Assembly: GCA_964385645.1 (NCBI GenBank)
Contig: CAYLPT010000003.1
Span: forward strand, 1-51,823
From: an uncultured bacterium
GTDB taxonomy: Bacteria > Armatimonadota > Hebobacteria > Hebobacterales > Hebobacteraceae
Direction of reading: 5' to 3'
Length of the DNA stretch: 51,823 nucleotides
Shown: piece after piece, positions 13,549 through 33,700 of the stretch
Layout: every line of letters starts with the position of its first letter
Numbering within the stretch: position 1 is the first letter of the stretch
Translations under genes and position numbers: made by a program
Notes under the pieces: model-generated
Databases searched by the model: none
Seen by the model: the letters and a program-made list of their open reading frames with translations, nothing else
Told to the model about the DNA's origin: nothing

Positions 13549-13564
13549 TGCAAGAGTCGTGCCA
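13549..13564 (-). promoter_or_regulatory. sigma-54 (-24/-12) promoter for the flippase-to-GT cassette
   Basis: TGGCACG-ACTC-TTGCA is an exact match to TGGCACG-N4-TTGC(A/T). It is intergenic and correctly oriented. Confidence 0.85.
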
Positions 13565-13657
13565 CGGGCGTCAGACGGTCACGAGGGGCTGTGGGACGGC
13601 GCAGATCGGGGTGCGGGCGAGAGGCTGCCGCCGGTGTGACAAGACGCTGAGAAGCGG

Positions 13658-14713
13658 TCAGGTCCCCGCCCGTGTCAGGACGGTGACGACGGTCATGAGG
13701 AGGATGCGGAGGTCGTGCCAGAGGGACATGCGGTGGAGGTAGATCCAGTCGTAGCGCAGCTTGTGGTAGACGCTGGTGAGGTAGTCGCCGTAGACCTGGG
13801 CGAGGCCGGTGATGCCGGGGCGGACCTTGAGCCGCTCCAGGTAGCCCGGGATGTGGGCGGCGAACTCGCTGACGAACTCGGGGCGCTCGGGCCGGGGCCC
13901 GACGACGCTCATCTCGCCCTTCAGGACGTTCCAGAACTGCGGGATCTCGTCCAACCGGGTCTGGCGGAGGAAGCGCCCGACGGGGGTGATGCGCTGGTCG
14001 TACTCGTGGGCGAGGACGGGCCCGGTCCCCCGCTCGGCGTCAATGACCATGCTGCGGAGCTTGTAGATGCGAAACGGCCGCCCGTCCCGGCCTGAGCGCT
14101 CCTGGCTGTAGAACACGGGGCCGGGGGAGGTGAGCTTGATGGCGACGGCCGCCAGGCAGACCAGGGGCAGGCAGAGGATGAGCATGAGCAGGCTGAAGAC
14201 GATGTCGAAGGCCCGCTTGGCGAGCAGAAAGAGGCGGCACGGCCCGACTCCCCGGAGGCACACGAGGGGGATGTCGGCGACCGGCTCGATGCGGCAGTCG
14301 CCGACCATCGCGTCGTAGAAGCCGGGAAGGACCTTGATGCGGAGCGCCCGGGAGGCGGTCCGCTCCATCGTCCGCTTGATGAGGTCCTCCTGCCAGCTCG
14401 GCATGTAGGCGACGATGACCTCGTCCACCTGGTGGGCCTCGACGATGTCGAGGACCTGGTCGAAGCGCCCCAGGATGGGCAGGCCGTCGAGACGGGGCAG
14501 GTCGAGGCGGTCGTCCGCGAAGCCCACGACCTCGAAGTGCCCATTGGTGCGGCCCATCATGAGCTCGGCGGCGATGTCCTGCCCCCGCGCGCCGGCCCCG
14601 ACGATGAGCACCCGGCGCCGGCGCTCCTGACGCGGGTCGCCGTTGCGCCCAAGGCGCAGGAACCGGCGGGGCGCTGCCTTCAGCCCAAGGCTCTTGTGAG
14701 AGGCCTGTGCCAT
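13658..14713 (-). CDS. Priming undecaprenyl-phosphate sugar phosphotransferase (WcaJ/Bac_transf family) with a Rossmann-like domain
   Basis: 'VLIVGAG', 'KRAFD', 'YKLRSM', 'LDEIPQFWNVLKGEMSVVGPRPERP', 'RPGITGLAQV'. Confidence 0.95.
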   Translation of the reverse strand: MAQASHKSLGLKAAPRRFLRLGRNGDPRQERRRRVLIVGAGARGQDIAAELMMGRTNGHFEVVGFADDRLDLPRLDGLPILGRFDQVLDIVEAHQVDEVIVAYMPSWQEDLIKRTMERTASRALRIKVLPGFYDAMVGDCRIEPVADIPLVCLRGVGPCRLFLLAKRAFDIVFSLLMLILCLPLVCLAAVAIKLTSPGPVFYSQERSGRDGRPFRIYKLRSMVIDAERGTGPVLAHEYDQRITPVGRFLRQTRLDEIPQFWNVLKGEMSVVGPRPERPEFVSEFAAHIPGYLERLKVRPGITGLAQVYGDYLTSVYHKLRYDWIYLHRMSLWHDLRILLMTVVTVLTRAGT

Positions 14714-14720
14714 CTGGCGA

Positions 14721-15746
14721 TCAACCCCACGGGACCGACTCGTCGAGCAGGCTGAGCTGAAGCGACGGCGGGCGCGCGGCGACCGGCGAGGCGGGTGAGT
14801 GAGCGGAGCCGTTCGACCCGGGCGGCGTCCACTCTGCGGAGGCCGGGCTGTGGGCGAGCATGTCGGAGAGCGTGCCGAAGCGGAAGGCGCGAATGAGCCG
14901 GGCGATCCGCGCCTGGGTGTGCTCCAGGTTTGCGTAGCTGCGCAGCCGGCGGAAGGGAGACAGCGCGAAGCGCGGGATGTCCGGGTCGAGCTCCCAGGGG
15001 TGGAGGTAGAAGACCACCGGCTCGCCCCGCTCGTTCAGGCGGCGACAGAACATCTCAACGGCCCACTCGGGCAGCAGGCGGAAGTACGCCCCGCCGGCGA
15101 ACGGGAAGTTCCGCCCTGCCAGGCGCACGGTGGAGGGCGGGACCTCCACGATGCCGGCCGAGCCGTTGACGCGCACCCGGTGGGGCAGCCGGGGAGCCCC
15201 GAGGAAGCCGTAGCGCTCGTGGTAGATCGGGAACACGCTGGAGTCGGTGTCGAAGCCGGCGTACTCGAGGACCTCGAAGGCCCAGGTTGAGCGAGGGGTG
15301 ATCGAGAACGAGGGCGCGCGGTAGCAGCGGGCGCGCACCCCGGCGGCCTCGCCGATGCACTGCGTCGCGCGGAAGAGGTCGGCCGCGAACTGCTCGGGGC
15401 TCTGGTCGAAGACGAGCCGGTGGGCGTAGCCGTGGGAGCCGATCTCATGGCCCGCGTCGCGTATCTCCCTGACGAGGTGCGGGAACCGCGCGGCGTTCCA
15501 GCCCAGGACGAAGAAGGTGGCACGCACCCCGGCGGCGGCAAGGAGATCCAGGAGGCGCCGCGTGTTCTCCACCAGGCGCGGCCGGCAGTTGCGCCAGTCC
15601 TCGAACGGGATGATGTGCTCCACGTTCGAGACCTGGAACCAGTCCTCCAGGTCAACCGTAAGCGCGTTCAGGGTGGGCGCCGCCGGCTGCGGGACCGGCG
15701 CTTCTCCGGTGTGGAGAGTCGGCTCAACGGCGCCCGCGGGCATCAT
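14721..15746 (-). CDS. Polysaccharide deacetylase, exosortase/PEP-CTERM-associated type (CE4 plus DUF3473-like)
   Basis: 'NALTVDLEDWFQV', 'ATFFVLGW', 'HEIGSHGYAH', 'YRAPSFSI', 'GGAYFRLLP', 'FYLHPWELDP'. Confidence 0.93.
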   Translation of the reverse strand: MMPAGAVEPTLHTGEAPVPQPAAPTLNALTVDLEDWFQVSNVEHIIPFEDWRNCRPRLVENTRRLLDLLAAAGVRATFFVLGWNAARFPHLVREIRDAGHEIGSHGYAHRLVFDQSPEQFAADLFRATQCIGEAAGVRARCYRAPSFSITPRSTWAFEVLEYAGFDTDSSVFPIYHERYGFLGAPRLPHRVRVNGSAGIVEVPPSTVRLAGRNFPFAGGAYFRLLPEWAVEMFCRRLNERGEPVVFYLHPWELDPDIPRFALSPFRRLRSYANLEHTQARIARLIRAFRFGTLSDMLAHSPASAEWTPPGSNGSAHSPASPVAARPPSLQLSLLDESVPWG

Positions 15747-18421
15747 GGCGACTGCTCCTCGGCCGCCGTGAAGCGGCGCATGGCCGGCGGGTCGCCGGGC
15801 TCGCCGAGGGGGCCGAGCGAACGGCCGTTGACAGTGACCTCGATGGCCGCGGGGCGGTTCGCCCAGAGCGTGATCTCCTCCGACGCTTGCCAGATCTGCT
15901 GGCCGCCGGTGAGGACGCCCTCGTAGAGCAGCCGGCCGTCGGTCTCGACGCGGAGCTCGACCGGCTGCCGGATGACCGCGATGACCCTGAGCCCCGGCGC
16001 GGCCGGGGCCGGCGCCACCGCGGCCGGGGCCGCGGGCGGGTGGACGGCCAGCCGGCCCGAGGCGACCAGGGCCGCTGCGGCGAGCGCGAGAGCCGCGACG
16101 CCGAGAAGCACAAGGACGCCGCGGCGCAGACGGCCGGGGCGGATAGCGCGCCCGGGAGCGGAGGGCATCTCCTCGACGGCCTGCTGTGGGGCAGCAGGCT
16201 CGCCAGGCGCGGCGGCGCGGTCCTCAGCCGGAGGGTTCGGCCGCGCGGGCACCTCGGCCGGCATGGGCTCGGCCGCCGATCCGGCGCCGGGCGGGGAGCC
16301 CGGCGGCAGGGCACGGGTGGTGGGGTAGTAGTGCCGGTGGAAGTAGTAGCTGTCCACCGCATCGGCCGGGGCCTGGTTGAGCACCGCGCCGATGACGTTG
16401 GCGCCGACCTTCTGGAAGAGGCGCTTAGTGCGCAGCTCCGCCTCGCGCACGGGCTGGCTGGCGCGGACGACGAGGATGACGCCGTCCACCAGCGGGCCCA
16501 GCAGCGCCGCGTCGGCGAACGCGGCGGCCGAGGGCGTATCAATGATGACGTAGTCGCTGTTCTGCTTGAGCCGGTCGAGGAGAGTACGCATGCGGCCGGA
16601 GCTCAGCAGGGCGGCCGGGTTGTCCACCGGCGGCCCGGCCGGCAGAAGGAGCAGGTTCTCGAGGGAGGTGCGCCGGAGCGCCTTCGCCGCACCCTCGCTC
16701 CCATTGGCGAGGAGCGTGGTGAGGCCGGCGTTGTTGGGCTCGTCGAAGAACGCGTGCAGGCCGGGGCGGCGCATGTCCGCGTCCACGAGGACGACGCGGT
16801 GGCCGACCTCAGCGAGGGCGGTGGCGAGGTTGACGGCGGTGGTGGAGCCGCCCTGCCCAGGCCTCGCGGTGGCGATCATGAGGGTGCGCACGGGGGACGC
16901 GCCGTTCTGATGGACGAGCTCGGTGCGCAGGAAGCGGAACGCCTCGGCGTGGGGGGAAAGAGGCCGCAGCTCGGTGATGCGGGCGAGCGGAACGCCGTCC
17001 GCCTCCGCGGTGAGCTCGGGTATGACGGCGGGGACGGGCAGCTCCAGCTCGCGGTGCAGGTCCTCGCCCGCCCGGAGCTTGTCGTCAATGAAAGCGAGCG
17101 CCAGCGCGCCGCCCAGCCCGAGCCCGAGGCTCAGGATCACGCCGAGCAGCAGCAACTGGATGACCGAGGGGCCCTTCTTCGTGACCGGGCCGACAGCCGA
17201 CTTGGCCTGGTCAACGATCTGTATCTCGCCGGCGCTCGCGCTGACCTTCTCCTCCACCCGAGCGTCCTCGAGCATGGCGAGCAGCCGGGCGTGCCGGGTC
17301 TCGGCGTTGGCGTAGTCCCGGGTCTGCGACATCAGGGCCACGGAGGCGTCGGCGAGCTGCGCGGCGCGGCGCTCGTTGTCCGCCATGGCGCCGGCGAGCG
17401 AGTTCAGGCGCGCGGCGAGCGCCGTCCGCTCTGCCTCCAGGTCCACGAGCTGCTCCTGCAACCTGTGGTAAGTCGGGTTCGGCTCGACCGTCCGCCGCGT
17501 GATCATGCGGTCGGCTTCCCGCGCCAGGCGCTCGCGCACGTCCTCGATCTGGGTCTCCAGGTCTCTAACCGTGCGGTGCCTGTCTGTATACCGGGCACGT
17601 GCGAGGAGCAGATCGCGCTCCAACTGGGCCAGGCGGCTCTGGAGTTCCAGGGTCACGGGGTTGTCAGTGGTGGCGGTCTCGGTCTCCCTGGCAGGCGGCT
17701 GCTCCCGGAGCTCGGCCCTCACCGCGCGGATCCGGCCCTCCACCTCCCGGAGCCGGGAGCGGGCCGCATCGGTCTCAGCGCGGAGGGCGTAGAACTGCCT
17801 CAGGAAGGGGTTCTCCGCGGTTCCGACCGGCAGTGCAGCCTCGCCCTGCGCGCTCTTGAAGGCCTGTAGTTCGGCCTTGGCGCGCTCCAGGTCGGCCGCC
17901 GCGGCGGCCACTTCGCCCTCGAGGAACTCGCGATTGCGCTTGGCTTGCTGGCTGGCGATCTCCTGGTAGTAGCGGGCGAACTCGTGAGCGATGGCGTTGG
18001 CGAGCGCCACGGCCCCGTCGGAGGTGCGCGAGAGGCAGGTGATCCGGATGATGCTGCCGGCCGCGGGCTCTACCTTCACCAGGTCCTCAAGCTGGGCCGG
18101 GGTCATCCTGAGCCCGAGGGACCGGATGGCGTTGTGGCGGACCTCCGAGGTGCGGGCGAGCCCGATGAACGTGCCCATGAGCTCGTCCTTGCGCCGCGGG
18201 TCGGGCCCGCGCGCCGCCTGTTGCTGGTGGTCCAGGCCGGGGATGAGCGGCTTGGTGAGGGCGGCCTCGGAGGGCATGACGAAGGCCGATGCTCGGTAGT
18301 AGCGCGGCATGAGGATGCAGCCGAGGGCGACGACGGTCAGCGTGGAGGCGCAGACCGCAATGACCAGCCATCGCCGCCGGTAGACCTCGCGATAGAGCCG
18401 CCAGAAGTCGCGCGCGTTCAT
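15743..18421 (-). CDS. Wzc/GumC-like polysaccharide co-polymerase with a BY-kinase-like domain (degenerate Walker A), followed by an extra TM helix and a RodZ C-terminal (DUF4115)-like domain
   Basis: N-terminal Wzz TM, long coiled coil, second TM, then 'EAFRFLRT', 'PGQGGSTT', 'VDADMRRP', 'IIDTP' and a Tyr cluster 'SYYFHRHYY'. A third TM precedes 'LRVETDGRLLYEGVL...IEVTVNGRSLGPLG'. Confidence 0.9.
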   Translation of the reverse strand: MNARDFWRLYREVYRRRWLVIAVCASTLTVVALGCILMPRYYRASAFVMPSEAALTKPLIPGLDHQQQAARGPDPRRKDELMGTFIGLARTSEVRHNAIRSLGLRMTPAQLEDLVKVEPAAGSIIRITCLSRTSDGAVALANAIAHEFARYYQEIASQQAKRNREFLEGEVAAAAADLERAKAELQAFKSAQGEAALPVGTAENPFLRQFYALRAETDAARSRLREVEGRIRAVRAELREQPPARETETATTDNPVTLELQSRLAQLERDLLLARARYTDRHRTVRDLETQIEDVRERLAREADRMITRRTVEPNPTYHRLQEQLVDLEAERTALAARLNSLAGAMADNERRAAQLADASVALMSQTRDYANAETRHARLLAMLEDARVEEKVSASAGEIQIVDQAKSAVGPVTKKGPSVIQLLLLGVILSLGLGLGGALALAFIDDKLRAGEDLHRELELPVPAVIPELTAEADGVPLARITELRPLSPHAEAFRFLRTELVHQNGASPVRTLMIATARPGQGGSTTAVNLATALAEVGHRVVLVDADMRRPGLHAFFDEPNNAGLTTLLANGSEGAAKALRRTSLENLLLLPAGPPVDNPAALLSSGRMRTLLDRLKQNSDYVIIDTPSAAAFADAALLGPLVDGVILVVRASQPVREAELRTKRLFQKVGANVIGAVLNQAPADAVDSYYFHRHYYPTTRALPPGSPPGAGSAAEPMPAEVPARPNPPAEDRAAAPGEPAAPQQAVEEMPSAPGRAIRPGRLRRGVLVLLGVAALALAAAALVASGRLAVHPPAAPAAVAPAPAAPGLRVIAVIRQPVELRVETDGRLLYEGVLTGGQQIWQASEEITLWANRPAAIEVTVNGRSLGPLGEPGDPPAMRRFTAAEEQSP

Positions 18422-18455
18422 GCTCCCTGCTTCCCGCGCAGCCGGCTCGCCAGCT

Positions 18456-19724
18456 CTAGAAAATGTACCGGTACAGCCATAGGTACCGCCACGCGTTGTC
18501 GGTGATGGACTGGATGATGCTGGTTCGCGACCCGCCGCCCGTCTGCGGCGGCCTTTCCGGCACAAAGACTACGTCGCGGTGCTCCAGCACCGGGTTCTGG
18601 CTCATGTCACCATGCTGGAAGAGCCGCTTCAGATCAGCGGGGATGCGCACCGGCGGGTCGGATCGCACCACCGCGCACCCGTCGAGGATGGCGTTGTCCT
18701 TGAGTCCCCCGGCGGTGGTGATGAGTTCGAGCAGCGTCGTGCCCGCCGGCACCATGTACTGCCCAGGCTCCTTGACCCCGCCCAGGATGTTCACCTCGGT
18801 GCAGTTGCGCGGCACGATCAGCTCGTCGCCGGCCTGGAGGATCGCGTTCCGCTCGCTCCGGGGGTTGGCGTCGAGCGCGGTGAGGTCAACCACGGTCTCG
18901 GACCCATCGGCGCGCACCAGCCGGGCCGACCGGGGGTTCCCGTCATCCGTCCAGCGGCCCGCCTCCTCGATGGCGTCCGAGAGGCGGGTGTCGTCGTCAT
19001 CCTTCAGCCAGTAGCGCCCCGGCTTCTTCACCGCGCCGGAGACCTTGTACTCACCCCGATCGCGCGCCCGGGATACCGCCCTGGCGACCGACACGCGGTC
19101 CCCTGGCTCCAGGAGTGGGTTCTGGTCGGCCTCGCCTAGGCGCCGATAGTCGCGCAGATTGTAGCGGCGCTCGCTGCCGTCGGCCTTCGTGAGGTAGACG
19201 GCGGCGAGGTCTCGCTCCTCGTCCTGCACACCACCCGCCTGGTTGACGGCGTCCAGCAGCCGCGAGCCCGACGACATCTCGTACTCGCCCGGCCGGCGGA
19301 CGTCCCCGATGACCATGACTCGGAAACGGCTGATGGTCAGAATCACGGTCGGGTTCCTGACATACTCGCCGATCTGGCGAGAGAGGGTCTCGGTGGCCTC
19401 GGTGGCGGTCTTGCCTGCCACCTCCACCGCGCCGACCATGTCGTCGGAGAACAGGATGGTCCCGTCGGCCCGGACCGAGTGGGAGCCGGAGTACTCGGGC
19501 GCCCCGAGGACGCTGATCGAGAGGGTGTCCCCCCTCCGGATGCGGTAGGCTGCAGGTGCCGTGCCCTCGACGGCCGGGGCGGCCAGCGCCGCCTCCTCGG
19601 CCTCGGCGAGGGCTGCAGGTTCCTCCAGCTCCGGTTCGGCGGGCGCCTGGGCCGGGCAGAGCCCGAGCAGGACGAAGCAGGCGACGACGATGACGACCAG
19701 CGATCGCGCTTGGCTCGCTTTCAT
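18456..19724 (-). CDS. Wza-like polysaccharide export protein with SLBB repeats
   Basis: Signal peptide, 'YRIRRGDTLSISV...VRADGTI', and three SLBB repeats (G-x-V-x-x-PG-x-Y ... L-x-x-GD). Confidence 0.92.
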   Translation of the reverse strand: MKASQARSLVVIVVACFVLLGLCPAQAPAEPELEEPAALAEAEEAALAAPAVEGTAPAAYRIRRGDTLSISVLGAPEYSGSHSVRADGTILFSDDMVGAVEVAGKTATEATETLSRQIGEYVRNPTVILTISRFRVMVIGDVRRPGEYEMSSGSRLLDAVNQAGGVQDEERDLAAVYLTKADGSERRYNLRDYRRLGEADQNPLLEPGDRVSVARAVSRARDRGEYKVSGAVKKPGRYWLKDDDDTRLSDAIEEAGRWTDDGNPRSARLVRADGSETVVDLTALDANPRSERNAILQAGDELIVPRNCTEVNILGGVKEPGQYMVPAGTTLLELITTAGGLKDNAILDGCAVVRSDPPVRIPADLKRLFQHGDMSQNPVLEHRDVVFVPERPPQTGGGSRTSIIQSITDNAWRYLWLYRYIF

Positions 19725-19774
19725 CACGCTATCCACCGCGGTGGTATGGTCATGTCCTTCGCCAGCCCAGGGGA

Positions 19775-19790
19775 TGCACAGACCGTGCCA
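19775..19790 (-). promoter_or_regulatory. sigma-54 promoter for the wza-wzc-deacetylase-transferase operon
   Basis: TGGCACG-GTCT-GTGCA with GG-N10-GC spacing, about 50 bp upstream of the wza start. Confidence 0.8.
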
Positions 19791-19862: not shown

Positions 19863-19891
19863 TTGACATGCAGAAGGTATGCCACTATACT
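19863..19891 (+). promoter_or_regulatory. sigma-70-type promoter for the enhancer-binding-protein gene
   Basis: TTGACA-17 nt-TATACT in an AT-richer divergent intergenic region. Confidence 0.8.
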
Positions 19892-21802: not shown

Positions 21803-21818
21803 TGGCACGGTTATTGCT
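21803..21818 (+). promoter_or_regulatory. sigma-54 promoter upstream of the receiver-PilZ gene and rpoN
   Basis: TGGCACG-GTTA-TTGCT is a perfect consensus, 16 bp after the bEBP stop. Confidence 0.85.
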
Positions 21819-21874: not shown

Positions 21875-22930
21875 GTGGCAAGCACCGAGGTCCCTGTCGC
21901 GCTGGCTGCGGACGCCGACCGGCAGTGCAATGAGAGTCTGTCCTCCTACCTGGAGGCGGCCGGGTGGAGGGTCCTGCGCGCGTACGAGGGCCGCTCGGCC
22001 CTCGCCATCCTCAGTTCCGAGCCGGTGTGCCTGGCGATCCTCGACCGCGACCTGCCCGAGGTGGATGCGGCCCGGGTCGTGTCGGCCGCACGGGCGAGCG
22101 GCCGGTGCTTCCAGGTCGTCTTCCTCGGGGACGCGCCTGGGCACGCCGAGGCCAAGGAGGGCGAGATGAGGGCCCTGGCGTGTCTTGCCAAGCCGCTGTG
22201 CACGGCATCCCTGGGCCCCGTGCTGCAGGAGGCCCTGCGCATGTCCGGTTCCGAGGATGGCGCCAGGAGCGGCGACTGCGCCTGGCCGGGTGAGTTGCAG
22301 GCAGGCGGGCGGGTGCGGCTGTCGGTGCGCACAGGGCCGGCGGCAGGGGGGTGTGCCGCCACCGTCGTCGAGGTGCGCCCCGAGGCGCTGGCCGTTCGCT
22401 GCGGCCCCGGGAGGGCCTCGCCGCGCTACATGCCGCTCGGCACCCTCGTAGTGGTCGGGTTCGGTTCGCCCCGCGGGTGGTGTGAGTGCGCCTCCCGCGT
22501 CGTCGCCTCACACGAGAACACGAGCGGCCTGGAGATGCTGCTCTCGGCCCCTGCGCGCATCGAGTATACCGAGCGGCGGCGGGGGACCCGCCGCGCGGCC
22601 TCCTTGGCCGTGGACGCGCGACCGCTGGGCCCAGCCGGGGAGGAGGGCGCGCCGGTCCCGGGCTGGACCGAGGAAATCGGGCCGGCGGGGTTGCGGGCGG
22701 TGCTCGACCGGCCGCTCAGGGGTGAGGGGGCGGTGGTGTTGTCGCTGTCCGGCCTGCGGGGCGGTGAGCGGGCCCTGGTGGCGGGGCGCACGGTCTGGTG
22801 GCAGGACTGCGGGCCCTCGGGCGACACCCGGCGCAGGTACGGATTCCGGTTCGTCCGCCTGCTGGGGGGTCGGTGGGGGAGCTTGGATGAGTTCGTCGCC
22901 GAGGCGACGGGAGAAAGCGAACAGCCCTGA
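21875..22930 (+). CDS. Receiver domain + YcgR-N-like + PilZ-like protein
   Basis: Receiver 'LAILDRDLP...CLAKP', a central beta-rich domain, then PilZ 'ERRRGTR...EEIGPAGLR...GRTVW...YGFRF'. GTG start chosen downstream of the sigma-54 promoter. Confidence 0.7.
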   Translation: MASTEVPVALAADADRQCNESLSSYLEAAGWRVLRAYEGRSALAILSSEPVCLAILDRDLPEVDAARVVSAARASGRCFQVVFLGDAPGHAEAKEGEMRALACLAKPLCTASLGPVLQEALRMSGSEDGARSGDCAWPGELQAGGRVRLSVRTGPAAGGCAATVVEVRPEALAVRCGPGRASPRYMPLGTLVVVGFGSPRGWCECASRVVASHENTSGLEMLLSAPARIEYTERRRGTRRAASLAVDARPLGPAGEEGAPVPGWTEEIGPAGLRAVLDRPLRGEGAVVLSLSGLRGGERALVAGRTVWWQDCGPSGDTRRRYGFRFVRLLGGRWGSLDEFVAEATGESEQP

Positions 22931-26180: not shown

Positions 26181-26222
26181 CACGTCCTCCTGAGTAGGGC
26201 CATGTGGCGCCGCCCTGGGCGC

Positions 26223-27812
26223 TCACAGCCCTGTAGCAGCATTCAAAGTCGGGTAAAGCTCCCGGAGGAGTTCCTCGGCCGCCTCTACCGCCGCCTCCGT
26301 CGAACCGGCCACCGGGGCCGTGACGCGGATCAGCGCGCCGCCGCTGGGGCGGTTCAGGAGCCGGTTGCGCAGCAGGCGGTACTGGAAGATGACCCAGCTC
26401 GGCGACGTCTCCTCGTGGGAGGCGAACCAGTAGAGCACGACCCGGCGGAAGTCCTGGCGCTGGAGCAGGAACTCGTTGGCGACCAAAGGCGCGCCCGCGC
26501 CCACGGACAGCTTGCGCCGGTTCTTCTCAAGGATGTTCCAGCCGCCGCCCAGCAGGCAGAAGCCGGGTGAGTGGAAGGTCTCCTTCTCCCGCCCGACGAC
26601 GATGGCAATGTCCGACCAGTAGCCGTCCTCGCGCACATACAGGCGAGCGACGTAGGCGTCGGGGCGGAGCATCTCCTGGCTCGTCCGATCCAGGGGCCCC
26701 AGGTCCTCGCCCTGCCACTGTTCTGTCTCCATGGGGAGGAGGGAGAAGTCGGAGCTGATGGGCTCGCCCGCCTCAGTGGCCGCATGGGAGCCGACGACCA
26801 GCAGGGCCGTGACGGCGAGCAGGGCCAGGGGCGGCAGGTAGGTCGGCCAGGGGCGCGCGCTCGGCTGGTGGGGCCGGGGCGGCGCGGTCGCATGAGCCGG
26901 GGCATCGCCGCCGGAGTCGCACGGCCCGCGGCCGGAGGGGTAGCGCAGGCCGAGCATCCGTGCGACGCCGGCGAGCCCCACGGCGGCGGTCACGTAGACG
27001 ACGGCGACGCCTGAGAAGCCATGCAGGAAGCCCTGCGCGGCATCCCGGCCCCACCAGGAGCCGATGGCGAGGATGCAGAGAATGCGGACGACGTTCGCGA
27101 TCAACGCTAGGGGAACGGTCAGGGCGAAGAGCGCCCCGCGCTTCCAGATAGGCCCCGTGAGGATGTACGCAGCCAGCGCCCCGACGGCGAGCAGGGCGAC
27201 GAGGGACTTCATGCCACTGCACGGCGCGCCCACCGAGAACGTGTAGCGAGGCAGGTGGATGTCCACGCCGTCACGCATCACCGGGACGCCAAAGAGGCCG
27301 GTGATCATGGCCGCGAACCTGGCGGAGAAGAGCTGCATCGGGAAGCTGAGGAACTCGACGAGGGTGTCCGGCCAGGGGATCGCGAACCAGAGGAACCCGT
27401 AGGCAAAGGCGAGGAGGCGGCTCGCCGCCGGCCCCAGCAAGTAGAGCATCAGACCGCCCAGGACGACCAGGAGCGACACCCGGGGCAGGAAGTGCACGTC
27501 GGAGAGGATGCCGAAAGGGTAGAGCAGGAGGCCCACGGCGATCACGACCAGCGCCCAGCCCCACCGCTGCGCCGCCGCGGCCGCGCCGCGGCGGCGCTCC
27601 CAGGCGAAGTAGCCAACCACGAAGGGCACGAGGAAGCCGTGGGAGGCGTTCTCGTTCGTCCACCACGTTCCCACCATGTCGGTCACCACCGGCCCGTACA
27701 GCGCGCACAGCGCGACGCACAGCAGCACCGGCGGCGCCGCGCGGCCGATGGGCGCGGCCCGCCGCGGTGCCGCCTGCGCCCCCTCCAGAGTCACTTCGCG
27801 CTCGGTCGCCAT
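26223..27812 (-). CDS. Exosortase (EpsH) fused to a C-terminal EpsI domain
   Basis: 'SHGFLVP' and the catalytic Cys/Arg/His motifs 'APCSGMKSL', 'NVVRI', 'FLHGFSG'. EpsI motifs 'HSPGFCLLGGGW', 'VLYWF', 'GALIRV'. Confidence 0.94.
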   Translation of the reverse strand: MATEREVTLEGAQAAPRRAAPIGRAAPPVLLCVALCALYGPVVTDMVGTWWTNENASHGFLVPFVVGYFAWERRRGAAAAAQRWGWALVVIAVGLLLYPFGILSDVHFLPRVSLLVVLGGLMLYLLGPAASRLLAFAYGFLWFAIPWPDTLVEFLSFPMQLFSARFAAMITGLFGVPVMRDGVDIHLPRYTFSVGAPCSGMKSLVALLAVGALAAYILTGPIWKRGALFALTVPLALIANVVRILCILAIGSWWGRDAAQGFLHGFSGVAVVYVTAAVGLAGVARMLGLRYPSGRGPCDSGGDAPAHATAPPRPHQPSARPWPTYLPPLALLAVTALLVVGSHAATEAGEPISSDFSLLPMETEQWQGEDLGPLDRTSQEMLRPDAYVARLYVREDGYWSDIAIVVGREKETFHSPGFCLLGGGWNILEKNRRKLSVGAGAPLVANEFLLQRQDFRRVVLYWFASHEETSPSWVIFQYRLLRNRLLNRPSGGALIRVTAPVAGSTEAAVEAAEELLRELYPTLNAATGL

Positions 27813-27830
27813 GGCGTGAAGTGACATCGG

Positions 27831-27846
27831 TGCAGGAACTGTGCCA
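27831..27846 (-). promoter_or_regulatory. sigma-54 promoter for exosortase-GT39
   Basis: TGGCACA-GTTC-CTGCA with GG-N10-GC spacing, immediately upstream of the ATG at 27812. Confidence 0.75.
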
Positions 27847-27967: not shown

Positions 27968-27983
27968 TGGTACGCTTGATGCT
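27968..27983 (+). promoter_or_regulatory. sigma-54 promoter for PEP-CTERM gene 1
   Basis: TGGTACG-CTTG-ATGCT with GG-N10-GC spacing, divergent from the exosortase promoter. Confidence 0.68.
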
Positions 27984-28130: not shown

Positions 28131-28838
28131 CTGAGACACATACTAGTCGGTAAGTCGTCGTTGCGTTGGGCCATTACCCTCACGCTTGTGAGCGTGATAG
28201 GTCTGGCCCTCAGCGCGGCGCCAGCCCTGGCGTACGACGCCACGGTCAGAGGATGGGTCGGCTACGGCGGTGTCAACAATGGCGGCGAGTTCGACGTGCA
28301 TGTCGCCACGTGGAGCTACCCAGTGCCCTGGATGACGTCCGTCAACACCTCGGGTTCGCACAGCGGGTACGCGACCCAGTTCGCGACCTTCTGTGTGCAG
28401 CGCACCCAGACGTTCAGTCCGGGCTCGCTGTACAACGTAACGCTCAGCAAGCAGACGGACGGCACCAAGCAGGCGCCCCTCACACCTGAGGCGGCGTGGT
28501 TGTTCCACAAGTGGAACTCGCGTGGCCTTACAGACTACCGCTACGACGATCCGACCAACCGCGTGTACGACGCCCGTGACCTGCAGCTAGCCCTGTGGGC
28601 CCACATGGGTGAGTGGGACTCCGGCAGCCTGGGTGGGCAGGCCAAGTCCTGGTATGACGCTGCAAAGGGTCGGTGGACCGGCACGGGCAACGTGTACGTC
28701 ATGCAGCTCTACCGGTCCTCCAACGACCACCAAGACTGGCTGGTCGAGCTGGTCCCGGAGCCTGGGACGATCGTCTTGCTCGCCTGTGGCGCGCTCGGAC
28801 TTGTGCCGGCGCTCAAGCGCCGACGGCGCAACAACTAG
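28131..28838 (+). CDS. PEP-CTERM sorting-domain protein 1 (putative thioester domain)
   Basis: Signal peptide ending 'APALA' and C-terminal 'VPEPGTIVLLACGALGLVPALKRRRR'. The start is either CTG 28131 (after GGAGGTGA) or TTG 28161. Confidence 0.92.
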   Translation: MRHILVGKSSLRWAITLTLVSVIGLALSAAPALAYDATVRGWVGYGGVNNGGEFDVHVATWSYPVPWMTSVNTSGSHSGYATQFATFCVQRTQTFSPGSLYNVTLSKQTDGTKQAPLTPEAAWLFHKWNSRGLTDYRYDDPTNRVYDARDLQLALWAHMGEWDSGSLGGQAKSWYDAAKGRWTGTGNVYVMQLYRSSNDHQDWLVELVPEPGTIVLLACGALGLVPALKRRRRNN

Positions 28839-29042: not shown

Positions 29043-29750
29043 CTAGCACTGTCGTCGTCTGCGGCGCAGCGCGGGCACCAGACCAAACAGCGCGCAGCCC
29101 ATCAGGGCGATGGTGCCGGGCTCGGGGACGAGCTCGACGAGCACGTCCTGCTTGTCGGTTCCCGAGGCATAGAGCTGCATCACCCGGACCGAACCGATCT
29201 GGTTGCCCGTATGCCACGAGCTGGCCAGCGCAAGGTCGTACCACTCCTGCTCCCTGGTGTCCGTGCCCCAGTAGCTGAATGACTCTCCCTGCAGTTTCCA
29301 GAGCACCCGCTGAAGCGCAGCTGCGCTAGCGTCCCTGCCTGCCGCGGTGTAGTCGTACTTGGGCAACGCCTTCCTGTTCCATAGCGCGAACAGATAGGCG
29401 GCTCCTCCACTGAGCGGCTTGACGTGCAGTGGGTTGCCGTCCGTGTGGGTCGAGATCGTGACGTCGTAAGGCGTGTTCATCGAGACGAACTGAGTCGTCT
29501 GCATGCAGAAGGTGGCGAAGTGCCGACTGGTGTTCTTCGGTGTCACCCATGTGATGTACGGCGTGTAGTTCCACTGATTCACCTTTACGTCGAACTCGCC
29601 GCCACGGCCAGACCCGACACCCGGGACATGCTGCAGTGGTGCATTGTAGCCATCATACAGGGTCACGTTCGCATCAGCTGCGAGCCCCACTGAAGCCGAC
29701 AGTAAGGCGGCCATCACGACCAGCCCGATCACAAGCGCTCCTCTCTTCAT
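29043..29750 (-). CDS. PEP-CTERM sorting-domain protein 2 (paralog of protein 1, putative thioester domain)
   Basis: GGAGGTGA RBS, signal peptide 'MKRGALVIGL...VGLA', and C-terminal 'VPEPGTIALMGCALFGLVPALRRRRR'. Confidence 0.93.
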   Translation of the reverse strand: MKRGALVIGLVVMAALLSASVGLAADANVTLYDGYNAPLQHVPGVGSGRGGEFDVKVNQWNYTPYITWVTPKNTSRHFATFCMQTTQFVSMNTPYDVTISTHTDGNPLHVKPLSGGAAYLFALWNRKALPKYDYTAAGRDASAAALQRVLWKLQGESFSYWGTDTREQEWYDLALASSWHTGNQIGSVRVMQLYASGTDKQDVLVELVPEPGTIALMGCALFGLVPALRRRRRQC

Positions 29751-29899
29751 CACATCACCTCCCTTCCGGAGCCGTCTGGCCGGCGCCGCCGGCTCGGCCG
29801 CGCATACACGCGGCCCCGGCGGGCCGACTTGATCCGCCTGCGCGCAGAGAGTCACCAGTGCGGTTCCCAGCCCGCGCAGGCTGTCCATAGGGTTCACGG

Positions 29900-29915
29900 A
29901 GCACAGAACGTGCCA
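29900..29915 (-). promoter_or_regulatory. sigma-54 promoter for PEP-CTERM gene 2
   Basis: TGGCACG-TTCT-GTGCT. Confidence 0.8.
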
Positions 29916-30082: not shown

Positions 30083-30098
30083 GGGCACGCTTTGTGCA
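30083..30098 (+). promoter_or_regulatory. Distal sigma-54-like promoter for PEP-CTERM gene 3
   Basis: GGGCACG-CTTT-GTGCA with GG-N10-GC spacing. Confidence 0.5.
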
Positions 30099-30215: not shown

Positions 30216-30231
30216 CGGCACGGTGTGTGCA
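30216..30231 (+). promoter_or_regulatory. Proximal sigma-54 promoter for PEP-CTERM gene 3
   Basis: CGGCACG-GTGT-GTGCA, about 55 bp upstream of the ATG. Confidence 0.7.
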
Positions 30232-30285
30232 GGTTAGCGGCGAACGGCGTGGCGCCAGAGGGTGCCACAGCGAGGAGTGTACGAT

Positions 30286-30975
30286 ATGTGGATATGGCGT
30301 CTACTGCTGGTCACGATGTGCGGCGCGATCGCGCTGGCGCTCCTCAGCGTCGCGCCGGCCCACGCGGTGCCCAACCTACAGCTCTACATCGAAGGCGCCA
30401 CCTGGAACTCCACCACCGAAACGTGGGTGACGACATCACCAGCCTTCGAGCTGTGGGTGATCGGTGCGCACGACATCGTCTACAACGTCCATCTGGGAGT
30501 TGCACTCCTGCCCAACTCAACGGACCCGGCCACCGGCACTGTTCGGATCTACGACGACACGAGGACAGGCCTGCTAGCGACACTGACTGACAAGGCCGAA
30601 GACGGCGGGAGTTTCACCTACGGCACGCCGACCTACTCAGGAGGCGACCTTCCGTCTCACGGCGTATACCCCACCTGGTACGCGCAGTACGACGTCGGCG
30701 ACCTCACGCCGCAGCACACCGTGTATGACATGCAGCCGGGCAAGGACGGTGAGGCGCAGGGCGAGATCAAGAGGTACTGGATAGAGGTCTCTGGCTTCGA
30801 GCGCGTCCACTTCGACGCCTACAACTACGTCGTGAAGAGCAAGATGAGGGGACGCTTCGCCCCCTTCAGCCACGACGCAGAGATGGTCCCGGAGCCTGGT
30901 ACCCTCGCGCTCTTCGCGCCGTGCCTCGCCGGGCTGGTCGGCGCGCGGCTGCGGCGCAGGACGAGGACGCAGTAG
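30286..30975 (+). CDS. PEP-CTERM protein 3 with a choice-of-anchor N-like domain
   Basis: GAGGAG RBS, signal peptide ending 'PAHA', 'PNLQLYIEGATW...HGVYPT...HFDAY...APFSHDAE', and 'VPEPGTLALFAPCLAGLVGARLRRR'. Confidence 0.9.
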   Translation: MWIWRLLLVTMCGAIALALLSVAPAHAVPNLQLYIEGATWNSTTETWVTTSPAFELWVIGAHDIVYNVHLGVALLPNSTDPATGTVRIYDDTRTGLLATLTDKAEDGGSFTYGTPTYSGGDLPSHGVYPTWYAQYDVGDLTPQHTVYDMQPGKDGEAQGEIKRYWIEVSGFERVHFDAYNYVVKSKMRGRFAPFSHDAEMVPEPGTLALFAPCLAGLVGARLRRRTRTQ

Positions 30976-31032
30976 CGACCGGCCGCGGGCGGGGACGGCA
31001 CGGCGCTGCCGCGCGCAGCCGAGCGGTGACGC

Positions 31033-33612
31033 TCAGGGTCGGTGGAACGGCAGAGCCCTCCGGTGATTCGGGGCCCCACTGACCCCGGAACGCCGCAGGC
31101 TCAGCTCCGGGCCCTGCTGGATGCTCTGAAGCGCCCGTAGGGCGGCGGCCGCGACGTCCTCCTCGCTCTCGCCTGATATCAGGTAGCGGAGCGCCGGCGC
31201 GGCCTGGGCTGCGGCCCCGCCCATGGCGCCAAGCGCCTCCGCGGCGTACCGGCGGATCCACCTGTCCTCGTCCCGGAGGGCCGCGATGAGCGCTGGCACC
31301 GCGGCTGCGGCGGCCGGACCCATGGCGCCGAGCGCCTGGGCGCACTTCCTGCGCAGAGCCGCGCCCTCGCCAGAGGCGCCCAGGACGTTCGCCAGCGCGC
31401 CCGCGGCAGGCGCCGCGCCGGGCCCGATGTGCGCAAGCGCCTGGGCGGCGTGCAGGCGAACGCGAGAGTCCTCATCCCGGAGCGCCTGTGCCAGGGCGCC
31501 CACTGTCGGCTGGTTAGCGTAGGCGCCCTCGCCGAGTGCCGTCGCGGCCGACCAGCGCACCCGCGGTTCCGGGTCCTCGGTCAGCGTCCTTGCCAGCACG
31601 TCTCCCGCCGCCGGCCCGGCGAGCTGGAACGCCCTGACGGCGGCGACCCTCACTTCGGGGTCGGGATGCCGGGCCGCCTCCTCCAGCTCGCCAAGCCAGG
31701 CCGGCGCGGCGTCCCTGAGCACCCGCTCGGCGCTGGCGCGTCGCCCAGGGCTCTGCCGGTCCCGTAGGGCCTCCAGAAGGGCCATCAGTGACGGGCCGAT
31801 GCGTGGCTCGGGGAGATCGGGCGGCGGCTCGGCCGTTTCCTGGGCAGCGGGCCGCACCGTCTCTGGCTCAGTCGGCTCGCGGGTCAGGGGCGGCGTGGGG
31901 ACCGCCGCCGGGGGTTCGGCCGGGCGGGTCTCCTCTGGAACAGGGGCATACTCCGGAGCGGGCGCCGCAGGCGGCTCCGGCGGCGTCATCGGCACGACCT
32001 CCGCCAGGAGCGGCGCGGCGCTCTGCGGCACGGCGTCACCAGGGTGGTCGGGAGCCGCCCAGGAGAGCGGCGCTTGAGTGCCGGTCGCCGCTGCGGTCCG
32101 CCTCGGCGGCGAGGGTGCAGGCGGCGCTTCGGCGGGCGGAGCAGCCGCCACCGTCGGAGCTGCCGGCGCCGGCTCAATGGCATCCAGAATCCGTCCGGCG
32201 GCCTCGCTCACCTCGGGATCGGCGTCATCGCGCAGGCTCGTCAGCCGGGTGATCGTCTCGGCGGCGCCGCCGAGGGCGCCGAGCGTCGAGGCGGCGGCGA
32301 TGGCTACCCAGGGGTCTTCGTCGTGGAGGGCAGCGGTCAGGGCGGGCACGATCTGCTCCGGGGGCGCGCCGGTGGCCGCCAGCGCACGGGCCGCAAGTTC
32401 GCGCAGGTGGGGCTCGGCCCGGCGCAGGATGCGGACGAGCGCGGGCGCGGCCTGCGGGCCGAGGCGACCGAGGGCCTGGGTGGCGAAGGCGCGCACGGCC
32501 TCGTCCTCGCGCTCGTCACCCACCCGCGCGGCAAGCGCCGGGGCCGCGGAGCGGGCCGCCGGCCCGATGGCCCCAAGCGCCTGCGCGGCCCGCAAGCGGA
32601 GGGCCACCTGGTCATCCCGCAGCGCGGCCGCGAGCGCGCCCACGGCGGGCCCGCCCTCCGCGCCGAGCTTCCCGAGGGCTTCGGCGGCGGAGCTCCGCAC
32701 GAGCCAGTCGTCGTCCTTCAGCGCCTCCATGAGAGGCCGGAGCGAGACCTGCGACGGGTTTCGCGCGGCGAGGGCTGCGGCGGCGGAGCGCCGGAGGGCG
32801 ACGTCCTGGTCGCCCAGGGCCTGCGCGAGCGCCCGCTCCGACGCCGGATTGGCGTCGGCCGAGCTGCCGAGGGCAAAGGCGGCCGCTCTGCGGGCGAGGG
32901 CGCTGTCGGAGAAGTCAACGAGTAGGGCCGCCAGGGTGGCGACCGCCGCCGGGTCGGGCTCGGCGCGTGCCAAGGCCTCGACGGCAAGTCGCCGCAGCCC
33001 GGGCGCGGCGTCCCGGTCTTTCACCGTGCCGAGCAGGAGCGCCGCGGGTATGCCCCCGCGCTGGGCCGCGACCGCAAGCGCCGACTCTCTGGCGAGCGCG
33101 GGGCGTGCCGACACGAGCGCGTGCAGGACCGACCGATCGTCTGCGGCGAGCGTGGCCACCACGCAGCGGGCGGCGCACGCGCTGACCAGATCCGCATCGT
33201 CGGCATCATCCGCGCCCGACTCCTCCCAGGTTTCCTCGACGGGAGGCGCGCCCTCCAGCAGCAGCGTGGTTATGGCGGCAACCGTTCGCGCCGGCCGGGC
33301 GGCCGACTCAGACCCCGCTTCCGGGCCGATGGTGATGCGCAGATGGAGGGGAACGCCGTCGGGGTGCGCAGCGATCATACGAACCCCGATCGACTCGAGA
33401 ACGGCTCGCACGGCCCGCTGTGCCGCCGCGGTCAAGCGCGCCTGATCGCGGTCGGCGTCGAGGGTGACGGCGACCCGGAGTGATGTCAGATCGCCGAGCG
33501 GACGGGGACTCTGTGCGGGCGCTGCCGCGCTCGCCTGCGGTCGAGGGAGCAAGCCCGCCAGGACCAACAGCCACAAGCCCCACCGGGTCGCTGGTTGACG
33601 GGATTTGCGCAT
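31033..33612 (-). CDS. Exported HEAT/PBS-lyase-repeat protein with a central Pro/Ala/Glu-rich linker
   Basis: N-terminal hydrophobic signal and many 'AL-x-D-x-D-x-x-VR-x-x-AA-x-ALG' repeats in two blocks. The start is approximate. Confidence 0.88.
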   Translation of the reverse strand: MRKSRQPATRWGLWLLVLAGLLPRPQASAAAPAQSPRPLGDLTSLRVAVTLDADRDQARLTAAAQRAVRAVLESIGVRMIAAHPDGVPLHLRITIGPEAGSESAARPARTVAAITTLLLEGAPPVEETWEESGADDADDADLVSACAARCVVATLAADDRSVLHALVSARPALARESALAVAAQRGGIPAALLLGTVKDRDAAPGLRRLAVEALARAEPDPAAVATLAALLVDFSDSALARRAAAFALGSSADANPASERALAQALGDQDVALRRSAAAALAARNPSQVSLRPLMEALKDDDWLVRSSAAEALGKLGAEGGPAVGALAAALRDDQVALRLRAAQALGAIGPAARSAAPALAARVGDEREDEAVRAFATQALGRLGPQAAPALVRILRRAEPHLRELAARALAATGAPPEQIVPALTAALHDEDPWVAIAAASTLGALGGAAETITRLTSLRDDADPEVSEAAGRILDAIEPAPAAPTVAAAPPAEAPPAPSPPRRTAAATGTQAPLSWAAPDHPGDAVPQSAAPLLAEVVPMTPPEPPAAPAPEYAPVPEETRPAEPPAAVPTPPLTREPTEPETVRPAAQETAEPPPDLPEPRIGPSLMALLEALRDRQSPGRRASAERVLRDAAPAWLGELEEAARHPDPEVRVAAVRAFQLAGPAAGDVLARTLTEDPEPRVRWSAATALGEGAYANQPTVGALAQALRDEDSRVRLHAAQALAHIGPGAAPAAGALANVLGASGEGAALRRKCAQALGAMGPAAAAAVPALIAALRDEDRWIRRYAAEALGAMGGAAAQAAPALRYLISGESEEDVAAAALRALQSIQQGPELSLRRSGVSGAPNHRRALPFHRP

Positions 33613-33684
33613 CCCAGGGGCCGCCGAGCACGGCGCTGGAGGTGCTGGCATTCGCCTACCACTGACCTGACAACACCTTGAGGA

Positions 33685-33700
33685 GGCAAGAGTCGTGCCA
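33685..33700 (-). promoter_or_regulatory. sigma-54 promoter for the HEAT-repeat gene
   Basis: TGGCACG-ACTC-TTGCC, identical at 15 of 16 positions to the 13549-13564 site. Confidence 0.8.

Follow-up and report, generated by a model that had tools for sequence, protein, structure and literature searches.

A probable sigma-54 circuit for exopolysaccharide and PEP-CTERM genes, encoded together with its own rpoN and activator, in a hot-spring bacterium of the phylum Armatimonadota

Most studies of sigma-54 (RpoN) treat it as a constitutively produced factor shared by many activators. In Borrelia (Rrp2-RpoN-RpoS) and Chlamydia (CtcC-sigma-54) one sigma-54 is paired with one bacterial enhancer-binding protein (bEBP) and controls a small specialised regulon; we know of no promoter described before rpoN itself in these bacteria. 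The proteobacterial PEP-CTERM/XrtA exosortase system with PrsK, PrsR and PrsT was reportedly described by Haft in 2006, and among the PilZN-PilZ proteins MrkH is able to act in transcription. Sigma-54 is generally associated with the cell exterior, according to the excerpted text of PMC3162934. In the excerpted text of PMC9850573, Aquincola has four RpoN paralogues, including the global regulator RpoN1, the PEP-CTERM genes (pepA) are RpoN-dependent with mapped transcription start sites, and exopolysaccharide (EPS) genes are reported to be independent of RpoN1. On the symbiosis island of M. loti, as set out in excerpts of PMC3538637, a locus-borne rpoN2 lies behind a NifA/sigma-54 promoter together with activators and targets. 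Here we describe a locus of EPS, exosortase and PEP-CTERM genes with an rpoN gene in its middle, found in a 51,823-nt stretch of DNA (hereafter, the window) that represents contig C3 of a 2.76-Mb, 234-contig assembly (G000; 83% complete, 0.8% contaminated, 71% GC) of an uncultured hot-spring bacterium of the phylum Armatimonadota. A sequencing-run search returned a single public run holding the sequence, consisting of hot-spring metagenome DNA and possibly its source.

Judging from its sequence, the locus is probably a surface-matrix cluster, in which EPS and PEP-CTERM/exosortase operons are transcribed with sigma-54 and a central cassette of bEBP, REC-PilZN-PilZ (REC, receiver domain) and rpoN genes provides the regulation. 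Gene identities were assigned by Pfam and NCBIfam profile searches. The cassette lies mid-island, where a first-pass annotation of the window had placed the bEBP and rpoN genes:

19863-19891, plus strand: sigma-70-like sequence TTGACA-17-TATACT facing the bEBP gene, a predicted promoter (11 of 12 positions matched; one such sequence observed, 0.1 expected from shuffles)
20350-21786, plus strand: NtrC-type bEBP with REC-AAA+-HTH architecture (PF00158, 224.1 bits; AAA_lid_14 and HTH_8 matched)
21875-22930, plus strand: REC plus PilZN-PilZ (YcgR/MotI/MrkH-like) protein of 351 aa, from a weak Pfam REC match and fold comparison
22939-24357, plus strand: RpoN (sigma-54) of 472 aa, starting 8 nt after the stop codon of the PilZ gene

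The bEBP displays a Walker A motif (GESGTGK), the sequence ESELFG and a GSFTGA loop. When its receiver was aligned to Spo0F and other receiver chains, Ser55 was found at the position of the phospho-acceptor Asp and Glu at that of the conserved Lys. The acceptor position is occupied by Glu in the related genome G007, and Asp is kept in the relatives G020 and G018. Judging from these residues, the receivers of the G000 and G007 activators cannot be phosphorylated. Domain searches revealed no cognate kinase gene within the locus. The bEBP scored 350.7 bits with the PrsR equivalog model TIGR02915 (cut-off 502.6), the AtoC and NtrC models scoring higher, and the best match to PrsK (TIGR02916) in the 83%-complete assembly reached 105.8 bits against a cut-off of 300, over the catalytic part alone.

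The middle protein of the cassette is composed of a receiver domain followed by two beta-barrels. Its neighbours in protein language-model space are PilZ families (0.90). An AlphaFold model had a mean pLDDT (predicted local distance difference test) of 67.9, with values of 75–87 in most 10-residue blocks of the last domain, and the ten best Foldseek matches were to MotI, MrkH, VCA0042, PP4397 and YcgR (E values from 4.6e-10 to 1.8e-6). The RRRxxR motif is invariant in all four orthologues aligned; the second PilZ motif reads DACEGG or DVGEGG in G020 and G018, and EIGPAG in G000. A predicted complex of RpoN (6-row alignment) with the REC-PilZ protein (4-row alignment) scored 0.00, which speaks neither for nor against binding.

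RpoN itself matched all three expected domains, namely the activator-interacting (PF00309, 37.0 bits; cut-off 23.8), core-binding (PF04963, 119.4 bits) and DNA-binding (PF04552, 116.5 bits) domains, and carries the RpoN box ARRTVAKYR at residue 450. Between region I and the core-binding domain it possesses a zinc-ribbon-like Cys4 insertion, CxxC-N8-CxxC (C57, C60, C69 and C72; window positions 23107-23154), which is invariant in six class-level sequences. Similar insertions are found in four of six more distant Armatimonadota RpoNs and are absent from the gammaproteobacterial sequences and those from unclassified metagenome-assembled genomes (MAGs). Word searches of open-access text found nothing on such an insertion in RpoN, nor on sigma-54 in Armatimonadota.

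Candidate promoters in the locus display the features of the sigma-54 consensus known from the literature: GG and GC dinucleotides 10 nt apart in a TGGCACG-N4-TTGCW-like context, in intergenic DNA and facing a gene. That consensus agrees with the sites tabulated in the excerpted portion of PMC3538637. All nine -24/-12 motifs listed in the first-pass annotation are present, intergenic and correctly oriented, the minus-strand starts having been given one base low, and a tenth was added, so that ten sites within one mismatch of TGGCACG-N5-TGC are both intergenic and gene-facing. Scores in bits refer to a weight matrix described below.

13550-13564, minus strand: candidate element TGGCACGACTCTTGC, preceding the flippase cassette and located between the sugar transferase and flippase genes (exact match; 23.0 bits, second-best matrix hit genome-wide)
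19776-19790, minus strand: candidate element TGGCACGGTCTGTGC, 40 nt before the wza start (exact match; 17.0 bits)
21803-21817, plus strand: candidate element TGGCACGGTTATTGC, 17 nt past the bEBP stop codon and 58 nt ahead of the REC-PilZ gene (exact match; 24.9 bits, best matrix hit genome-wide)
27832-27846, minus strand: candidate element TGGCACAGTTCCTGC before the exosortase gene (one mismatch; 20.0 bits)
27968-27982, plus strand: candidate element TGGTACGCTTGATGC before PEP-CTERM gene 1, divergent from the predicted exosortase promoter and among the weakest of the set (one mismatch; below 14 bits)
29901-29915, minus strand: candidate element TGGCACGTTCTGTGC before PEP-CTERM gene 2 (exact match; 17.5 bits)
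30083-30097 and 30216-30230, plus strand: tandem candidates GGGCACGCTTTGTGC and CGGCACGGTGTGTGC before PEP-CTERM gene 3 (one mismatch each; both below 14 bits)
33686-33700, minus strand: candidate element TGGCACGACTCTTGC before the HEAT gene (exact match; 21.5 bits)
34449-34463, minus strand: weak tenth candidate GGGCACGGAATGTGC, intergenic, 247 nt before the VanZ gene (one mismatch; below 14 bits)

The element at 21803-21817 would drive expression of the PilZ and rpoN genes. A further -24/-12-like sequence, TGGCATACCTTCTGC, is found at 19870-19884 on the minus strand, about 94 nt upstream of the predicted main wza promoter; it overlaps, on the opposite strand, the sigma-70-like sequence at 19863-19891.

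Expected numbers of matches in the window were obtained from 100 dinucleotide shuffles. Five exact matches to TGGCACG-N5-TGC were found against 0.26 expected (shuffle maximum 2; none of the 100 reached 5), and with one mismatch the count was 18 against 8.02 (sd 2.91; none of the 100 reached 18). The eight matches among these 18 that do not belong to the intergenic set fall within genes, roughly as many as chance would give. Enrichment disappears when two mismatches are allowed (103 against 99.4), so the signal is carried by the strict motif alone. Furthermore, the information content does not extend past the 15 nt of the motif, the flanking sequences being unrelated; therefore, the motifs do not constitute a repeat element. 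The occurrence of the motif before the flippase cassette, wza, PilZ-rpoN, the exosortase, all three PEP-CTERM genes and the HEAT gene is thus far above chance, in line with what had been proposed from a first look at the sequence.

Across the whole assembly the exact pattern occurs seven times, and five of these are the intergenic, oriented sites of the locus. The looser pattern NGGCACG-N5-TGC occurs 32 times: eight times in the approximately 2.75 kb of intergenic DNA of the locus (11957-34600), seven times in approximately 249 kb of other intergenic DNA and 17 times in coding DNA (coding and intergenic DNA were separated with our own crude gene caller, corrected by hand within the window). 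The motif density is approximately 100 times higher in the intergenic DNA of the locus than in other intergenic DNA, and the idea of a promoter-rich island stands up to this comparison. To avoid circularity, a weight matrix was trained on 25 sites taken solely from the loci of relatives, and G000 was scanned with it at a listing threshold of 14 bits. Fifteen matches exceeded the threshold, the best eight of which (at least 16.9 bits) are all intergenic. Six of the eight are located in the locus (21803, 13550, 33686, 27832, 29901 and 19776), and the other two precede a GT4 glycosyltransferase operon on contig C70 and a ComM-like gene on contig C44. Below the threshold fell the locus sites at 27968, 30083, 30216 and 34449.

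The distribution of the system was explored in 31 genomes of the class and 301 genomes of the phylum. Genes for RpoN are present in 213 of the 301 phylum genomes and in five of the 31 class genomes, namely G000, G007, G015, G018 and G020; one of 14 other genomes of the same family carries the gene (two of 15 with G000 included), and none of 12 genomes of another family (f3) does. Exosortases scoring at least 128 bits are found in the same five class genomes and in no others, five f3 genomes possessing a distant exosortase (74–88 bits) and no rpoN. Strong bEBPs number one per rpoN in the five genomes, with one orphan in G010. Since the five genomes are related, this co-occurrence does not represent five independent events. 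The G010 bEBP (G010:C103:982-1485; AAA+ domain, 246 bits) belongs to a 96%-complete genome of the same family in which rpoN and exosortase were not detectable; it could be an orphan activator, a remnant or the product of a mis-binned contig.

The arrangement of activator, -24/-12 motif and PilZ-rpoN is kept in all five rpoN-bearing genomes of the class. In each, the motif lies 14–76 nt past the bEBP stop codon and ahead of PilZ/rpoN, in spacers that are otherwise unalignable. The gene order is Xrt-PMT2-rpoN-PilZ-bEBP-Wza-Wzc-deacetylase-transferase-GTs (GT, glycosyltransferase) in G007, rpoN-(partly masked gene)-bEBP-Xrt / PMT2-PEP-CTERM-Wza-Wzc in the rearranged locus of G015, and transferase-deacetylase-Wzc-Wza / bEBP-REC-PilZ-rpoN in G020. 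Consequently, the linkage anticipated by the first-pass annotation is observed in relatives: bEBP-rpoN stands beside Wza/Wzc in G007, G015 and G020 and beside the exosortase in G007 and G015. Orthologues of the wza operon keep the same order in G007, G015 and G020. In these three genomes the motif is found before wza or a PEP-CTERM-wza unit and directly before a PEP-CTERM gene of 220–230 aa, and it precedes the exosortase in G015 and G020. Four of the 25 exact matches in G007 fall within 25 kb around rpoN (a reversed-pattern control gave 11 matches).

In an RpoN tree, from which G036 was left out, both G000 paralogues (see below) fall into one class-level clade (100/99) with G007, G015, G018 and G020, and the locus copy is sister to that of G007 (100/100). 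The genomes of G007 and G020, each assembled as a single contig, contain a single rpoN with a single strong bEBP gene beside it (G020 also has a second AAA+ match of 78.7 bits). The cassette is better read as the whole minimal sigma-54 system of this lineage than as a second sigma factor supplementing a housekeeping one.

The remaining genes of the locus are consistent with assembly and export of a surface matrix. From the left end, on the minus strand, they encode GT4, GT2, a Wzy-like polymerase, an FrhB-like protein, pyruvyl transferase, flippase, priming transferase, DUF3473 deacetylase, Wzc and Wza; the bEBP, REC-PilZ and RpoN genes (plus strand) follow, then those for the PMT_2 glycosyltransferase and exosortase-EpsI (minus strand), the three PEP-CTERM proteins, the HEAT protein and VanZ:

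11957-13531, minus strand: Wzx-type flippase (Polysacc_synt_3; Pfam), start codon uncertain (13531 to 13375), heading a cassette that extends to about 1401 and includes the pyruvyl transferase, FrhB-like, GT2, Wzy-like and GT4 genes
13658-19736, minus strand: wza operon (Pfam and NCBIfam), with the next four genes
18456-19736, minus strand: Wza
15743-18421, minus strand: Wzc-type chain-length/tyrosine kinase
14721-15746, minus strand: polysaccharide deacetylase with DUF3473
13658-14713, minus strand: priming sugar transferase
26223-27827 or 27812, minus strand: exosortase (EpsH) fused to EpsI (Pfam and NCBIfam), spanning 24381-27827 with the next gene
24381-26183, minus strand: PMT_2-family membrane glycosyltransferase, downstream of exosortase-EpsI
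28161-28838, plus strand: PEP-CTERM protein 1, with C-terminal VPEPGT, transmembrane stretch and RRRR (PEP-CTERM models all below cut-off)
29043-29753, minus strand: PEP-CTERM protein 2, a paralogue of protein 1 (TIGR02595, 18.2 bits; cut-off 16)
30277-30975, plus strand: PEP-CTERM protein 3, with a choice-of-anchor N domain (NF038141, 144.7 bits; cut-off 40) and a VPEPGT tail
31033-33612, minus strand: secreted HEAT-repeat protein (Pfam HEAT_2 and related models; signal-peptide-like start MRKSRQ...)
33738-34202, minus strand: VanZ-like membrane protein (Pfam)

The exosortase-EpsI fusion matched PF09721 (216.5 bits), PF11984 (112 bits), TIGR02602 (161.1 bits; cut-off 105.55) and TIGR02914 (81.8 bits; cut-off 42.8), and none of the named Xrt subtypes reached its cut-off (XrtD 251.4 against 400, XrtW 235.2 against 425, XrtA 186.1 against 208). 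The C-termini of all three PEP-CTERM proteins consist of VPEPGT, a hydrophobic segment and RRRR, TIGR02595 being above its cut-off for one of them. Together with a PEP-CTERM gene on contig C19, they make up the four open reading frames of G000 with a genuine PEP-CTERM tail (picked by eye from 19 regular-expression matches), and all four are preceded by the motif.

Regarding the origin of the locus, the GC content of the regulatory core is typical of the genome (70–72%) and the glycosyltransferase end alone is lower (65–67%); no tRNA genes were found and no mobility genes were seen at the locus, and the RpoN tree roughly tracks taxonomy. On the grounds of the core GC content, the lack of tRNA genes and the tree, a recent transfer from another phylum is not claimed. 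Searches against Rfam returned nothing in the window at the gathering score and nothing credible in the 460-nt leader before the bEBP gene. Elsewhere in the window, two paralogous genes for DUF6785+DUF6784 membrane proteins are present at 41994-43946 (plus strand) and 48442-50430 (minus strand), with genes for a Kelch-repeat protein and a 1026-aa FAD-oxidoreductase between them.

How the circuit might operate can be outlined from this arrangement. The bEBP gene would be transcribed independently of sigma-54, from the sigma-70-like promoter at 19863-19891. Because of that promoter, and because no terminator-like site was found after the bEBP gene, read-through past the gene would be expected to supply the PilZ protein and RpoN at a basal level. 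The bEBP and the sigma-54 holoenzyme could then open the promoter 17 nt past the bEBP stop codon, raising the amounts of both proteins and thus exerting positive feedback on the sigma factor, and would subsequently fire the promoters of wza-wzc, the flippase/glycosyltransferase cassette, the exosortase, PEP-CTERM, HEAT and VanZ genes. The best candidate for signal input would be the co-operonic PilZ protein, which might bind cyclic di-GMP (c-di-GMP) and act on a target protein. Input through a PrsK-like kinase is improbable, since the receiver appears not to be phosphorylatable and no cognate kinase is present. We tentatively consider a more specific version, which is possible though rather doubtful: the cassette would be a portable, minimal, positively autoregulated switch, in which a PilZ c-di-GMP receptor made in fixed ratio with the sigma factor gates either sigma-54 or the kinase-independent bEBP and so gives rise to a bistable matrix state, the cassette being gained or lost as one unit with its exosortase/EPS targets in a class otherwise devoid of sigma-54.

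Several observations weigh against the reading of the locus as a sigma-54-dependent matrix cluster. The public sequencing-run search listed no RNA runs holding the sequence. The sigma-70-like promoter was not seen in G007 at equal stringency, which leaves the sigma-70 step of the scheme tentative. The middle protein does not match Pfam PilZ (PF07238) at E <= 0.01 and its structural model is of medium confidence; it is called PilZ-like by fold, since Foldseek matches PilZN-PilZ receptors and Pfam PilZ does not match. RpoN, at 271.0 bits, falls just under the TIGR02395 equivalog cut-off of 277.35, plausibly owing to the Cys4 insertion that replaces region II. The leader of the predicted exosortase promoter would be at most 20 nt long (ATG codons lie 5 and 20 nt downstream of 27832-27846), and no motif was found before the exosortase of G007. 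Palindrome and k-mer enumeration across 10–11 upstream regions failed to reveal a clear shared upstream activator site: no palindrome (half-sites of 4–6 nt, gaps of 0–13) recurred in at least five of the regions from -260 to -15 of the 10–11 sites, and 7–9-mers with one mismatch were weakly enriched in the same regions; CTGTGTCA, for instance, occurred in 7 of 10 regions and in 8% of controls. The exact pattern occurs 27 times in G020 against 32 for the reversed-pattern control, and in that genome the T-rich-spacer subset alone looks real. Finally, candidate sites exist outside the locus (three before non-EPS genes and one before the ComM-like gene), a second bEBP-rpoN pair in G000 might serve some of these promoters, and the genome is an 83%-complete MAG in which the contig carrying that pair could in principle be mis-binned.

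The sites outside the locus bear on the strongest alternative, according to which the cassette is the only, general sigma-54 system of the lineage and lies beside EPS export genes by chance, its regulon being dispersed and a dedicated island circuit an overstatement. Three intergenic, oriented sites of the form AGGCACGC-N4-TTGC (C213:4015, C226:31680 and C70:67551) precede genes for a BKACE enzyme, a C39-peptidase-like protein and an ADP-ribosylglycohydrolase, with about 0.6 expected by chance by our own estimate; they may be non-EPS targets of sigma-54 or targets preferred by the second RpoN. Together with the ComM-like gene these sites favour a general system, as do three of the seven G007 exact sites ending in TTGC, which lie outside the locus of that genome, and about a dozen exact sites with T-rich spacers that are scattered over the G020 chromosome. 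In G020, moreover, the exosortase/PEP-CTERM locus is 3.2 Mb away from rpoN, with motifs still present, and the 16.6-kb contig of G018 holds the cassette alone, without any linked EPS gene. We nevertheless regard a general system as unlikely. Of the eight best matrix matches in G000, six belong to the locus and another precedes a glycosyltransferase operon; rpoN, bEBP and exosortase type co-occur perfectly, in the same five of 31 class genomes; and amtB (37057-38421), a typical nitrogen target, has no motif upstream within two mismatches, nor is there one upstream of the glnK-like gene that follows the locus together with amtB. The good sites outside the locus are themselves mostly located before EPS genes (on C19 and before the C70 GT4 operon). 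Apart from these sites, the sequence TGGCACGGCAAGTGC is identical at C100:10953-10969 of G000 and G007:C1:855300-855314, where it belongs to a palindrome immediately downstream of a ClpB-like AAA+ gene; a conserved hairpin is a likelier explanation for it than a promoter.

The second alternative concerns the other RpoN/bEBP pair. The first-pass annotation had envisaged a single packaged circuit; the assembly contains two rpoN genes that share 43% identity, and its strong bEBPs likewise number exactly two, each beside an rpoN, as opposed to the sole copy in G007 and G020. The additional pair faces a MacB/HlyD/TolC-type efflux operon on contig C202 (10.8 kb), the start of which falls within bEBP2. 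One could suppose that this pair is the housekeeping sigma-54 system and mainly serves the promoters, the locus copy being redundant or a specialised amplifier, as with rhizobial RpoN1/RpoN2. The genes bEBP2 and rpoN2 are 15 nt apart, without a PilZ gene or a -24/-12 motif, as expected of a constitutively co-transcribed pair, and the RpoN boxes of the two proteins (ARRTVAKYR and ARRTVTKYR) are nearly identical, so both RpoNs should read the same -24 element. Also compatible with such an arrangement is contig C19 (L020; 1-4073), which resembles a second module: it carries genes for a PEP-CTERM protein (28 bits with PF07589), Wza2 (45% identical to the locus Wza) and two GT4 enzymes behind GGGCACGGGAATTGC at the contig edge. 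This EPS unit may adjoin the C202 pair, and no overlaps were found between the ends of C202 and other contigs. Nevertheless, the second sigma factor is not needed for the architecture, since the same architecture is found in G007 and G020 with a single rpoN; RpoN2 clusters inside the same class-level clade and not with a distinct housekeeping lineage; and C202, which starts within bEBP2, is possibly mis-binned. We therefore find a leading role for the C202 pair quite improbable. The missing N-terminus of bEBP2 could be encoded by a truncated REC-PAS gene at the end of contig C158. In that contig (L034; 4013-10705), HydG/HydE-like radical SAM genes and HydF come first. Next is a gene for a protein of the sensory hydrogenase type, in which a histidine kinase is joined to a domain resembling the [FeFe]-hydrogenase large subunit, and after it come a receiver protein gene and the REC-PAS gene cut by the contig end.

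The remaining possibility, that the motifs are not promoters but chance GC-rich matches or a dispersed repeat, could draw on the 71% GC content, the lack of enrichment at two mismatches and the absence of expression data, and has already been largely refuted, as no shuffle reached the counts observed at zero or one mismatch, all ten sites are intergenic and oriented with in-gene matches at about the chance number, the flanks carry no information, and in four further genomes the same motif recurs at the orthologous sites although its flanks have diverged. We thus return to a sigma-54-dependent matrix cluster as the preferred explanation. That the circuit is self-contained, as had been proposed, is true insofar as the sigma factor, an activator and most of the strong sites reside in the locus; the second rpoN/bEBP pair on C202, the sites elsewhere, the distant exosortase of G020 and the G018 contig without EPS genes show where the term goes too far. 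The earlier interpretation, including its assignment to a non-proteobacterial lineage, which is Armatimonadota, is partly supported by what is sequence evidence throughout: it was right in substance, with self-containment overstated.

If this explanation is correct, the system has seemingly been cut down to one sigma factor, one activator and one matrix regulon, with the sigma gene behind its own type of promoter, and would be a small, naturally occurring case of a sigma-54 feedback switch. PEP-CTERM/exosortase systems would then be tied to sigma-54 outside Proteobacteria as well, and without PrsK/PrsR, and the PilZ gene in the rpoN operon hints that c-di-GMP may be an input. The set of promoters and proteins is small and testable, and presence or absence of the cassette may be useful for predicting aggregate or biofilm formation by Armatimonadota of hot springs and other habitats.

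Comparison with described systems helps to delimit what is particular to the locus. As in Borrelia and Chlamydia, one sigma-54 is paired with one bEBP; unlike here, the genes in those host-associated pathogens are not beside their targets in one locus. The middle protein shares with the PilZN-PilZ receptors YcgR, MotI and MrkH (PDB 5vx6, 5ejl, 2rde and 5y6f) the two-barrel fold and an RRxxxR-type motif, but differs from them in the extra N-terminal receiver domain, which is absent in G007, in the degenerate DxSxxG motif of G000 (EIGPAG) and in the lack of a Pfam PilZ match. We know of no published case of a PilZ gene between bEBP and rpoN genes, and open-access word searches, which were not aimed directly at the bEBP-PilZ-rpoN position, found nothing on a PilZ gene in an rpoN operon. 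Similarly to the proteobacterial PEP-CTERM/XrtA system, the PEP-CTERM substrate genes lie behind -24/-12 promoter motifs, the exosortase is linked to Wza, Wzc, DUF3473 deacetylase and priming transferase, and an activator of REC-AAA+-HTH type is present. However, PrsK is missing here, the bEBP does not qualify as a PrsR equivalog, and the exosortase, a fusion with EpsI, scores below the XrtA cut-off. In contrast to what the excerpts of PMC9850573 report for Aquincola, the export, flippase and exosortase genes are motif-bearing as well, and rpoN is inside the locus.

The closest likeness is to the rhizobial circuit (nifA and prxS-rpoN2 of ICEMlSymR7A, an integrative and conjugative element, and of Rhizobium etli), as far as it is described in the excerpted text of PMC3538637. 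In both cases rpoN and a bEBP are locus-borne and most target promoters are clustered; rpoN comes second in an operon of two genes with a -24/-12 promoter ahead of it, an arrangement that would give positive feedback, and the loop would need priming by basal expression from another source. The rhizobial circuit serves nitrogen fixation rather than a surface matrix, its activator is NifA, with a GAF domain, instead of a REC-type protein, and the gene upstream of rpoN encodes a peroxiredoxin instead of a PilZ protein. Moreover, a chromosomal housekeeping rpoN1 always coexists in the rhizobia covered by that text, whereas two complete relatives of the present bacterium have the cassette copy alone, and no mobility or tRNA genes comparable to those of a mobile element were seen at the locus. 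A locus-borne sigma-54 circuit therefore has a precedent in the rhizobial symbiosis islands, which, in the excerpts of PMC3538637, carry rpoN2, nifA and their promoters. Distinct here are the phylum, the economy of one sigma factor and one activator, the PilZ-rpoN operon, the kinase-independent activator, the lack of PrsK/PrsR, and the coupled presence or absence of cassette and exosortase within the class.

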